Shown here in pieces: positions 54,314 through 57,049 of a stretch of 64,000 nucleotides of DNA. The stretch lies in contig JBDHJM010000001.1 of NCBI GenBank assembly GCA_039586895.1, forward strand, positions 8,882 to 72,881. Reading direction: 5' to 3'. This DNA is from Gemmatimonadota bacterium (GTDB lineage: Bacteria; Gemmatimonadota; Gemmatimonadetes; Gemmatimonadales; GWC2-71-9). A program made the translations under genes and the position numbers. The notes under the pieces are model-generated. The model worked only from the letters and a program-made list of their open reading frames with translations, made no database searches and had not been told where the DNA came from. The stretch's first letter is position 1, and each line of letters opens with the position of its first letter.

Positions 54314-57049
54314 ATGATCGCGACGGAAAAGGACCTCCAGACGCACACGATGACTCTCGACGGCGAGGCGGTCAGCTTCGCCGACGGCGAGACCATCTAC
54401 GAGGTGGCGCAGCGCCACGGGGGAGACATTCCCACACTGTGCTACGACGCCCGGCTGGAGGCGTTCGGAGGCTGCCGCCTCTGCGTGGTCGACGTCGAGG
54501 GCCAGCGCCTTCCCGTGGCATCCTGCACTACGAAGGCCGCGCCTGGCATGGTCGTGAACACCAGATCCGCCGGCGTCGAGAAGCACCGCAAAACGCTGCT
54601 CGAGATGGTCGCATCGGAGAACCGCGAACTCGAAGTGGACGAGCTGCGCGGTTACGCCGCGCAGGAGCTGGCCACGCTGGTCGAGCGCTACGACGCCCGC
54701 ACCGGGCGGTTCGCGGGCAGGCAGTCGGGCGCCACCCGGCAGGACGACGACAACCCGTTCATCCTGCGCGATTACGACCTGTGCATCTCGTGCTACCGCT
54801 GCACCCGCGTGTGTGCCGAGCAGGAGGGCGACCACGCCATCAGCGTCATGAACCGCGGCTTCGATACGCAGATCACCGTCGAGTTCGAGGGACTGCTCCG
54901 AGACTCCGCGTGCACGTTCTGTGGCCAGTGCGTGCAGACCTGCCCAACGGGCGCCCTCGCCGACCGGAAGGCCATGCGACACGCGGAAGTGCCGGAGCCC
55001 GTCGAGAAGACCCGCACCATCTGCACGTACTGTGGAGTCGGCTGTTCGGTCGACCTGCTCACCAAAGGCGACCGCGTGATCGGTGTCCTGCCGGCAATGG
55101 ACGGCCCGGCCAATGAGGGCGCGCTGTGCGTGAAAGGCCAGTTCGCCTACGACTTCGTGCAGCACCCGGACCGTCTCAAGGCACCGCTAGTGCGCGGCGC
55201 CGACGGCAGGCTGCACGAGACCGACTGGGATACCGCGCTCGACCGTGCGGCCGACGGCTTCCGCAACGTGGTGGCGGAGCACGGCCGCGACAGCGTGTAC
55301 GCTGTTGCGTCAGGACGGGCGCCCAGCGAGGCGGCCTACACGATGCAGAAGTTCGTGCGTGCGGGATGGGGGTTGAACCACATCGACAACTGCAGCCGTG
55401 CCTGACACGCTCCCACGGTTGCCGGTCTGGCAGCCACGATCGGACGGGGCGCGATGTCGAACCCGCTCGCGGACATGGAGAAGCCCGACGTCATATTCGC
55501 GATCGGGACGAACATGACCGAGTGCCACCCGGTGGCGGCCACCCGCCTCAAGCGGGCGCTGGCGCGGGGTGCGAAGATGATCGTGGCCGACCCGCGGCGG
55601 ATCGGACTGGCCGAGCTGGCAGACCTGTACCTCCCGATCCGGGTGGGCACCGACGTGGCTCTGCTGCTGGCGATGGCGCACGTAATCAGCCGCGAGGGAC
55701 TGGTGGATCCCGAGTTCATCGCGGACCGCACGACGGGGAGTGAAGAGCTTCTCGAACATGTGAAGCAGTTCCCGCCCGAGTGGGCCGAGCAGCTCACGGG
55801 GGTGCCGGCACAGGACATCGAGACGGCCGCCCTGTGGTACGGCCGCGCCGACAGGGGCGCCATCTACTACACGCTGGGCATCACCGAGCACATCTGCGGC
55901 GTGGACAACGTGCAGAGCCTATGCAACCTCGTTCTGATGACCGGGAACATCGGACGCGAAGGAACCGGCATAAACCCCATGCGGGGCCAGAACAACATCC
56001 AGGGAGCCGGCGACAGCGGCGCTCTGCCCAACAACTACCCCGGCTTCCAGCCCGTCACCGACCCCGAGAACCAGAAGAAGTTCGAGCGTCTCTACGGCAC
56101 GAAGGTGGACCTCGAAAAGGGGCCCACCAAGGTGACGGCGCTGGAGATGGCGGGCGACAAGATCCGTGCGATGCTGATCGACGGAGAGAACACCGTCGTG
56201 TCGGATCCCGACCGGCACCACTGCGAGCGCGCGCTGAAGGCGCTCGACCACCTCGTCGTGATCGACATCTTCATGACCGAGACGGCGGAGCTCGCCGACG
56301 TCGTGCTCCCGGCATCGGCATGGGGCGAGACCGACGGAGTGCAGGTGAACAGCGAACGGCGGGTGCAGCGGGTGCGGAAGGCGGTCGACCCTCCCGGCGA
56401 AGCCAGGCCTGACTGGTGGATCGTCTCCCAGCTGGCCAAGCGGCTCGGTTTCCAGGGCTTCGAGTTCGAGTCGGCGAAGGACGTGTTCAACGAGCTGTGC
56501 AGTCTGTCGCCGATCTACAATGGGCTCGACTGGGACCGGATCGACAGCGGTGAGCTGCAGTGGCCCGTGCCCGAGATAGGCCACCCTGGAACACCGATTC
56601 TGCACCAGCGGGAATTCAAGAACGGCAGGGGCGTCTTCAAGATCGTCGCCTACCGCGATCCCGCCGAAACCGTCGACGACGAATACCCGGTATGGCTCAC
56701 CACCGGGCGCCGCCTCGAGTCGTACCACACGCGCACTCAGACCGGCCGCTCGGACGGCATCGACTACCTCCTGCCGGAGGAGACCCTGGAGGTGCATCCC
56801 GACGACGTGGAGGCGTGGGGCCTCAGCGACGGGGGCTGGGCCGAGATGTCCAGTCCGCGCGGCTGTGTCATGATCAAGGTGAAGGCTACACGGCGGTCTC
56901 CCCGGGGCACCGTGTTCGCCAGCTTCTCCTTCAACGACACGCCGGTCAACGTGCTCACGGGCGGCGGCTACGACCCGGTGACGCACACGGCGGAGCTCAA
57001 GGTATGCCCGGTGAGGGTCGAGCCCGCCGGCAAGCCCGCAGGTGTCTAG
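54314..57049 (+). CDS. fdhA: Formate dehydrogenase catalytic (alpha) subunit, selenocysteine-containing (UGA at codon 364 read as Sec)
   Basis: One frame spans both track ORFs (54314-55405 and 55454-57049). N-terminal 2Fe-2S and 4Fe-4S modules (CRLC..., CISCYRCTRVC, CTFCGQCVQTCP, CTYCGVGC) precede the Mo-bisPGD domains. The TGA at 55403-55405 sits in ...[16 protein letters not shown]...GRGAMSN, the FdhF-type active-site motif. Confidence 0.9.
55403..55440 (+). promoter_or_regulatory. UGA(Sec) codon plus bacterial SECIS hairpin
   Basis: UGA, 11 nt, then GGUUGCC(55417-55423)-GGUCU-GGCAGCC(55429-55435). The 7-bp stem includes one G-U pair. Spacing and GGUC loop resemble the E. coli fdhF element as I remember it. 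Confidence 0.8.

Follow-up and report, generated by a model that had tools for sequence, protein, structure and literature searches.

Formate dehydrogenases (FDHs) that contain selenocysteine (Sec) and are linked to NAD(P) (nicotinamide adenine dinucleotide or its phosphate) have been known since the 1970s. One of these enzymes, that of Moorella thermoacetica, is NADP-dependent and contains both tungsten and Sec (Table 1, PMC10779653), and the pairing of Sec with an NAD(P)-linked partner is an already known combination. The enzymes best studied with a NuoE/NuoF-type diaphorase as partner are FdsABG and MeFDH1; the beta subunit of MeFDH1 is equivalent to FdsB plus FdsG, and the A5 cluster is absent from MeFDH1 (PMC10869683). 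The locus described here lies in a stretch of 64,000 nucleotides (the window) from a Gemmatimonadota bacterium (contig JBDHJM010000001.1 of assembly GCA_039586895.1), where positions 54314-57049 of the forward strand were called as two genes. These are almost certainly one gene, fdhA, for the alpha subunit of an FDH of this general kind, with codon 364, a UGA, read as Sec. It is a real but ordinary selenoprotein gene that has been wrongly split by the gene callers. The gene and its unusual codon are as follows.

54314..57049, + strand: fdhA, alpha subunit (911 aa) of a predicted formate dehydrogenase with molybdenum or tungsten held by a bis(pyranopterin guanine dinucleotide) cofactor (Mo/W-bisPGD), with Sec at residue 364 (from frame, PDB, NCBIfam and Pfam)
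55403..55405, + strand: UGA codon 364, read as Sec, the predicted metal ligand (from alignment, TGA in 80/80 orthologues and Cys in distant homologues)

Direct reading of the window reveals a single frame over 54314-57049 (+), which comprises 911 residues followed by a TAG stop and in which codon 364 is the sole internal stop. The two called open reading frames (ORFs), 54314-55405 (ending in the TGA at 55403-55405) and 55454-57049, share this frame, and the 48 nt between them are 16 sense codons, as a first-pass annotation of the letters alone had already noticed. The window was also scanned for coding sequence that has a high G+C content at third codon positions (GC3) and that continues over an in-frame TGA. 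The only within-gene case was fdhA; the other match was the ordinary stop of the upstream beta-subunit gene (TGA 54290-54292), which is in frame with fdhA. Since TGA is the commonest stop among the other genes of the window (24 of 45) and no other within-gene coding runs through a TGA, the code has not been reassigned at UGA. The start of fdhA lies 21 nt past the beta-subunit TGA, and the site (54290-54313) looks like a normal stop with an intergenic GGAGAGGA ribosome-binding site after it.

The identity of the product was examined with a joined protein in which Cys was put in place of the internal stop. Its best PDB matches are the alpha subunits of MeFDH1 (7e5z_A, E 1.3e-196, residues 13-906) and of the Rhodobacter capsulatus enzyme, RcFDH (6tg9_A, E 2.3e-190), which together fall within residues 13-908. 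In both alignments, the UGA column is the cysteine that precedes the histidine in C-x-R-x-C-H, and UGA-364 with His365 thus stands opposite the C-H of 7e5z and 6tg9; this cysteine is the metal ligand in MeFDH1 and RcFDH. The same column is homologous to Sec140 of E. coli FdhH. The claim, made initially from an E. coli FdhF motif (CARV-U-HGPSVAGL...GNGAMSN), that the UGA occupies the Mo/W-ligand position is thus upheld by the alignment of the joined product, and the motif itself agrees with the DNA of fdhF from E. coli K-12. The arginine motif R-G-Q-N-N-(V/I)-Q-G is also present (NPMRGQNNIQG opposite hPlRGQNNVQG). The joined protein scores 740.2 bits with the curated equivalog model TIGR01591 (Fdh-alpha) of NCBIfam, for which the cut-off is 666.25, and, as tested, it is the joined protein alone that passes. 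Its Pfam domains are, in order, Fer2_4 and Nqo3-like ferredoxin domains, PF04879 (Molybdop_Fe4S4, residues 232-284), PF00384 (Molybdopterin, 287-710) and PF01568 (Molydop_binding, 794-899). These homologies, which can be observed directly, support the assignment of the joined product as an FDH alpha subunit of the FdhF/FdsA/Fdh1A group, and catalysis with formate/CO2 is predicted for it.

One alternative is that the gene is truly split: translation would stop at UGA-364 and restart at the AUG at 55454, and an Fe-S polypeptide and a molybdopterin polypeptide would assemble into an enzyme that has neither a Sec nor a Cys ligand. Gene callers do indeed give exactly two ORFs, both here and in the best 120 database matches (see below), and the second ORF has an in-frame ATG 48 nt past the TGA. 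However, the Pfam Molybdopterin domain spans codon 364, and the two-ORF call therefore cuts one domain, which a true split would sever.

The database pattern is relevant to this question. Among 5.8 billion predicted proteins, the best 120 matches are all fragments of 505-546 aa that correspond to the C-terminal 55-60% of the query, and the few of them with a source name come from metagenome-assembled genomes (MAGs) of Gemmatimonadota or Gemmatimonadales. Since all of these matches are C-terminal fragments, the same split must have been called everywhere, which is the signature of a conserved in-frame stop. A set of orthologues comprising 80 loci from 80 other species-representative genomes (74-87% protein identity, the closest match in the collection being 87% identical to the window gene) allows the codon itself to be followed: TGA is found at the codon-364 column in 80/80, within an invariant D-N-C-S-R-A-(stop)-H-(A/S)-P-T-V, which is well past anything that chance would give. 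Both halves of fdhA have a strong coding signal, with 69-90% amino-acid identity among relatives.

This conservation bears on two explanations. Against a true split, the 16 codons that separate the TGA from the ATG are kept as protein in all 80 orthologues, and among them are the catalytic His and a portion of the segment that binds the cofactor; moreover, the supposed restart codon is the Met of G-A-M-(S/T)-N, which, wherever the full-length Cys-type homologues fetched possess it, is likewise internal. The second explanation is that 55403-55405 holds a nonsense mutation (which would make fdhA a pseudogene) or was wrongly sequenced or assembled. A recent mutation or a base-call error is expected to look just like this, a lone in-frame stop with the rest of the gene intact, but the occurrence of an identical TGA in 80 independent assemblies of different species effectively refutes this idea, to which the coding character of both halves and the dedicated, conserved hairpin 3' of the codon (see below) are also contrary. 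We give it next to no credence, and the early opinion that a pseudogene break was unlikely has held good.

More distant relatives were sought by an exhaustive search of a library clustered at 50% identity, which gave a count of 25,164 homologues and from which 25 sequences were fetched. In this library, the clade amounts to one full-length representative (P0121, 78% identical) and a few short fragments, and the nearest relatives beyond the clade are no more than 47% identical. The full-length distant homologues fetched have Cys at the UGA column (e.g., P0124, P0125, P0127, P0129, P0131, and P0153), the exception being P0158, which is more distant and reads F-E-H there. Some of the fetched distant homologues likewise end just past this column. 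Taken together, the database pattern, the TGA in 80/80 orthologues, the Cys in distant homologues and the stop usage of the window rule out a pseudogene, a sequencing error and a reassigned code.

Bacterial decoding of UGA as Sec depends on a hairpin in the mRNA, the selenocysteine insertion sequence (SECIS), and a candidate for it lies just downstream of codon 364.

55417..55435, + strand: apical hairpin of the candidate SECIS, stem 55417-55423/55429-55435, loop GGUCU 55424-55428 (from folding and covariation)
55400..55458, + strand: full-length match to the Rfam family SECIS_3 (RF01989) (from a local scan)

The hairpin, GGUUGCC-GGUCU-GGCAGCC, has a 7-bp stem and a 5-nt loop and begins 11 nt past the UGA, which is the canonical distance. 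It folds with -12.5 kcal/mol (z = -2.4), while a 116-nt fold around the UGA is no more stable than shuffles (z = +1.06); what is supported as an RNA structure is only the short apical hairpin and not a fold of the whole region. The hairpin is kept in 81/81 sequences (the window plus the 80 orthologues). Covariation was computed on the 68 distinct sequences, with 500 shuffles and slid pairing partners as controls. Standard pairs occupy 97.9% of the pair cells versus 90.2% in the shuffles, none of which reaches the observed value, and 15-62% with slid partners. Pair 18-30 is the most instructive: it is U-A in 36 sequences, C-G in 27, G-C in 4 and G-U in 1, is never unpaired (0/68), and is altered on both sides in 32 of the 68. 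Both of its columns are third positions of conserved codons, for Val and Ala, and the changes are therefore synonymous as well as compensatory. The covariation score is 0.206 as against 0.078 in the shuffles (0/500 reach 0.206).

The constraint can also be seen in the codons. Those at +6 to +8 (GCC GGU CUG), which make up the loop and the uppermost part of the stem, are invariant in 79 distinct sequences except for one GGG in place of GGU, while the four-fold sites that flank them have an entropy of 1.4-1.9 bits; GGU is, moreover, rare among the Gly codons of fdhA (7/83). In a single control, a Cys-type homologue with the otherwise identical peptide C-H-A-P-T-V-A-G-L, there is no comparable hairpin. 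Such constraint and covariation at the RNA level right after the UGA suit a SECIS and not a restart site, and a truly split gene is, on all of this evidence, very improbable.

In a local Rfam scan, the region matches the whole of SECIS_3 (RF01989; model positions 1-59 of 59) with 52.8 bits (E 3.7e-12), and SECIS_2 with 32.2 bits. The element resembles a bacterial SECIS of the FDH type but is outside RF01989 by Rfam's curated threshold.

That threshold is one of several results that weigh against a recoding of UGA-364 as Sec. The gathering scores are 63 for SECIS_3 and 70 for SECIS_2, and both matches fall below them. Accordingly, a whole-window Rfam scan at gathering thresholds gave no match, and no SECIS at gathering score was found in the six relatives scanned, because the scores sit below that level. 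The machinery is likewise elusive: neither the 64 kb of the window nor the sequences flanking the 80 related loci yielded selA, selB, selD or the tRNA for Sec (tRNA-Sec). SelB and SelD are not adjacent to selA in 22 loci from Gemmatimonadota/Longimicrobiales, even at E up to 0.01, and tRNA-Sec was not found near FDH or SelA loci, so that SelA is the only component located in relatives. In the window itself, ARAGORN reports no tRNA of any kind. When the SelA, SelB and SelD proteins of E. coli were compared by tblastn with the window and the 80 loci, there were just three weak SelA-like matches (~26% identity, E ~1e-6), which are probably other enzymes that use pyridoxal phosphate (PLP).

SelA was located in relatives by means of a GC-biased DNA pattern for its PLP-lysine motif, G-D-K-L-L-G-G-P-Q-A-G. 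The pattern matched the MAG BHB10-38_Bin_83, the very MAG that carries one of the orthologous FDH loci (L031), and the protein found there shares 45% identity with the SelA of E. coli (E 2e-88). When used as a query, it in turn revealed a SelA on two closed chromosomes that also carry FDH loci, OZ252109.1 (L072) and OZ220479.1 (L063). Pfam confirms the assignment (SelA, 453.7 bits, plus a Se-cys_synth_N domain). SelA is not known to have a role beyond the synthesis of Sec-tRNA.

A third explanation for the in-frame UGA is that it is decoded without SelB, either through a reassigned code (as Trp or Gly) or through near-cognate read-through (as Cys or Trp). The fact that SelB, SelD and tRNA-Sec were not found in the sequences examined would be in keeping with this. 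Against it stand the stop usage described above, the position of the codon, which is that of a Cys/Sec metal ligand, the downstream hairpin, which matches known SelB-binding SECIS families, and the presence of SelA in relatives with the same gene. Decoding of this kind has, in our view, hardly any probability, and UGA-364 as Sec is the reading retained here.

Several observations were made around the selA genes themselves. On OZ252109.1 (locus L205), a 628-aa ORF upstream of selA, which was a candidate for SelB by its size, turned out to be an Ig-like/CarboxypepD_reg protein. Similarly, a tRNA of 84-86 nt near selA was considered as a tRNA-Sec, and both ARAGORN and Rfam give it as an ordinary tRNA-Ser(UGA). 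This tRNA occurs within 4-7 kb of selA in 10 of the 22 loci (L205, at 15148-15231, L210, L212, L214, L216, L218, L219, L221, L250, and L281); in nine of them it is downstream of selA on the same strand, and in L281 it is on the opposite strand. Directly downstream of selA on OZ252109.1, there is a HesB/IscA-like gene (L205:11487-11903; Pfam Fe-S_biosyn), and 'HesB-like' is a known selenoprotein family (Table 3, PMC5029168).

The first-pass annotation considered a Sec version in a high-GC, apparently aerobic genome to be worth noting. This stands insofar as the best-studied enzymes with such a partner, FdsABG and MeFDH1, use Cys; the surprise, by contrast, was overstated. The SelA pattern also matched many other high-GC genomes, including those of Streptomyces, Mycobacterium, Modestobacter, Variovorax and Comamonas, genera that are generally regarded as aerobic. 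No bacterial selenoprotein is more widespread than FdhA (1,276 genes in 822 organisms), and 40% of the Sec-using bacteria are aerobic as compared with 36% anaerobic (PMC5029168). Given this wide distribution, the frequency of aerobes among Sec users and the occurrence of the SelA pattern in aerobic genera, a Sec-containing FdhA in a high-GC, aerobic-looking genome is not surprising. In supplementary file 3 of Peng et al. 2016 (PMC5029168), there are two Poribacteria entries, 5 and 15, which are apparently counts of selenoprotein genes, and there is no entry for Gemmatimonadetes. We found no literature specific to Sec in Gemmatimonadota.

The gene order around fdhA, namely fdhD, the beta-subunit gene, fdhA and a SufS-like gene, can be read directly from the window.

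51706..52515, + strand: fdhD, formate dehydrogenase accessory sulfurtransferase (Pfam FdhD-NarQ 224.7 bits; TIGR00129 166.4, cut-off 140.9)
52622..54292, + strand: FDH beta subunit (556 aa), a NuoE-like [2Fe-2S] part fused to a NuoF-like diaphorase part for flavin mononucleotide (FMN), NAD and [4Fe-4S] (Pfam, PDB)
57068..58492, + strand: SufS-like class V aminotransferase of the cysteine desulfurase family (Pfam Aminotran_5 275.8 bits)

In the beta subunit, Pfam recognises 2Fe-2S_thioredx (residues 7-96), Complex1_51K, SLBB and NADH_4Fe-4S, and the only PDB match to cover both parts is the beta subunit of MeFDH1 (7e5z_B, residues 15-548). The partner is thus the NuoE/NuoF-type diaphorase that had been proposed at the outset, here fused into one subunit. 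The best NCBIfam match of the SufS-like protein is the SufS-family model TIGR01979, with 281.8 bits, which is below the cut-off of 475. Among the related loci, the beta gene is directly upstream of fdhA in 60 of 80; an fdhD homologue lies inside the fetched locus in 30 of 80 and, in the nearest Gemmatimonadota relatives, immediately precedes the beta gene; and in the 13 closest relatives the next gene after fdhA is the SufS-like one. In the Poribacteria loci (L015, L022, L024-L029, L032-L034, and L036), tblastn revealed no NuoE/F-like beta gene beside the Sec-type fdhA, and the partner subunit of their FDH may be encoded elsewhere or be a different one.

The expected course of events is as follows. 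The SECIS hairpin would recruit SelB together with Sec-tRNA(Sec), and the ribosome would insert Sec at codon 364 rather than stop. Sec364, which is followed by His365, would ligate the active-site metal, and the electrons from formate would then pass from the Mo/W-bisPGD centre through the [4Fe-4S] and [2Fe-2S] clusters of the alpha subunit to the FMN of the beta subunit and thence to NAD(P)+. The cofactor probably receives its sulfido ligand from FdhD and the neighbouring SufS-like desulfurase, with the SufS-like protein as the presumed sulfur donor for FdhD. The alpha sequence has no twin-arginine leader, and the window showed neither a gene for Mo or W transport nor any other for the cofactor. 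From the homologies and gene content, we infer a cytoplasmic, NAD(P)-linked, Mo- or W-bis-pyranopterin FDH, in which selenium would be inserted at residue 364, the metal may be either Mo or W, and the nucleotide may be either NAD or NADP.

Other genes of the window may be mentioned here. Downstream of the FDH operon, there is an ORF of 810 aa (58735-61167, +) whose GC3 is high and which neither Pfam nor NCBIfam matches, followed by a 489-aa ORF with a weak similarity to AAA+ chelatases of the BchI/ChlI type (61276-62745, +; E ~1e-8). Homologues of the former occur in 13 related loci (39-68% identity) and of the latter in 9 (78-84%); the nearest Gemmatimonadota relatives have both, in this order, just past the operon. 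A cytidylate-kinase-like ORF (62514-63392, +) overlaps the end of the 489-aa ORF by ~230 nt; its Pfam domain begins only at residue 80, and its true start is therefore probably further downstream. About 10 kb upstream of the operon, a GlcD-like FAD-linked oxidase (42014-43438, +) and a GlcF-like protein with Fe-S/CCG domains (44534-46309, +), with the ORF 43410-45023 between them, suggest a glycolate or D-lactate oxidase complex. Finally, a 697-aa ORF on the other strand (21792-23885, -) combines a cytochrome c domain like that of cbb3-type subunit III with an FTR1 iron permease and looks like a fused cytochrome-iron transporter.

What is modestly new in this locus is the clade to which it belongs: an uncharacterised, tight (at least 74% identity) and MeFDH1-like group that is apparently exclusively of the Sec type and that is at most 47% identical to other representatives. 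Its MAGs are labelled Gemmatimonadota, Poribacteria, Latescibacterota, Verrucomicrobiota, Planctomycetota and Acidobacteriota, and many are from sponge or marine samples. One idea, in which our confidence is somewhat less than even, is that the clade might be a distinct, all-Sec subfamily of NAD-linked FDHs of the MeFDH1 type (with a fused beta subunit, without the A5 cluster, and possibly with tungsten) that has recently spread horizontally. Such a subfamily would be invisible in the databases because its members are annotated as two proteins. If the idea were right, the spread would have occurred among marine and sponge-associated, largely aerobic bacteria, and the subfamily would be a selenium counterpart to the NAD-dependent, oxygen-tolerant FDHs that serve in CO2 reduction. 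Three loci (L039-L041), labelled Opitutia, Rhodospirillaceae and Verrucomicrobia, agree in the coordinates and identities of the FDH locus and have identical SECIS regions. Some of the clade's MAGs thus probably carry unreliable NCBI labels, and the claim of a distribution across phyla is weakened as a result.

The finding leaves known selenoprotein biology unchanged, and its main value is the correction of an annotation, the gene having been called as an Fe-S "NuoG-like" fragment and a "molybdopterin oxidoreductase". Metabolic reconstructions from Gemmatimonadota, Poribacteria and related MAGs may consequently miss or mislabel a complete NAD-linked FDH, and may overlook that the organisms depend on selenium. 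Another lineage also joins the many bacteria in which the Sec machinery is retained for FdhA. Should the enzyme prove to be as oxygen-tolerant as its Cys relatives, it would be a natural Sec variant useful for the question of Sec versus Cys in CO2-reducing FDHs.

How, then, does the window system compare with the enzymes already described? With that of Moorella it shares, by description and not by sequence, a cytoplasmic alpha-beta organisation, an active-site Sec and coupling to a pyridine nucleotide; the Sec-containing NAD(P)-linked FDHs of the Moorella type differ in coming from strictly anaerobic acetogens. With FdhH of E. coli it has in common the Sec followed by His at the equivalent position, within a shared C-x-R-x-U-H-x-P-x-V-A-G-L. 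FdhH is, however, a monomer of 715 aa that has no NuoG-like N-terminal Fe-S domains and that delivers its electrons to hydrogenase 3. The likeness extends to the RNA: in E. coli fdhF, the 11-nt spacer is followed by GGUUGCA-GGUC-UGCACC, so that both the spacer and GGUUGC...GGUC are in the same register as in the window and both loops open with GGUC, and Rfam SECIS_2, the consensus of which resembles the E. coli element, matches the window at 32 bits. The E. coli hairpin differs in having a bulged U and a 4-nt loop, whereas that of the window has a U-G pair in place of the bulge and a loop of 5 nt.

The FdsABG(D) enzymes of R. capsulatus and Cupriavidus necator (PDB 6tg9), which are NAD-dependent and contain Mo, are homologous to the window protein along the full length of the alpha subunit, have a NuoF-type partner and share maturation of the FdhD type. 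They differ in using Cys, in having separate FdsG and FdsB subunits, and in possessing FdsD and the extra A5 cluster, whereas the window system has Sec and a fused beta subunit, lacks the A5 cysteines and contains no recognised fdsD-like gene.

The best solved homologue of the alpha subunit is MeFDH1 (or FoDH1) of Methylobacterium extorquens AM1, a tungsten enzyme (PDB 7e5z, 7vw6, and 8j83). Both systems consist of two subunits, alpha and beta, with a beta that fuses NuoE-like and NuoF-like parts, and both are cytoplasmic. As in 7e5z, the alpha subunit of the window has no cysteines opposite the DCLTCAANGDC segment of RcFDH, which holds the A5 [4Fe-4S] cluster. MeFDH1 differs in having Cys as the ligand, where the window protein has UGA/Sec and a SECIS, and the two are distant: the C-terminal part of the window protein has no representative with more than 47% identity outside its own clade. 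Since the beta subunit of MeFDH1 is nevertheless the only one among solved structures that covers both halves of its counterpart in the window, and since the A5 cysteines are absent from both alpha subunits, the window enzyme is best described as MeFDH1-like.

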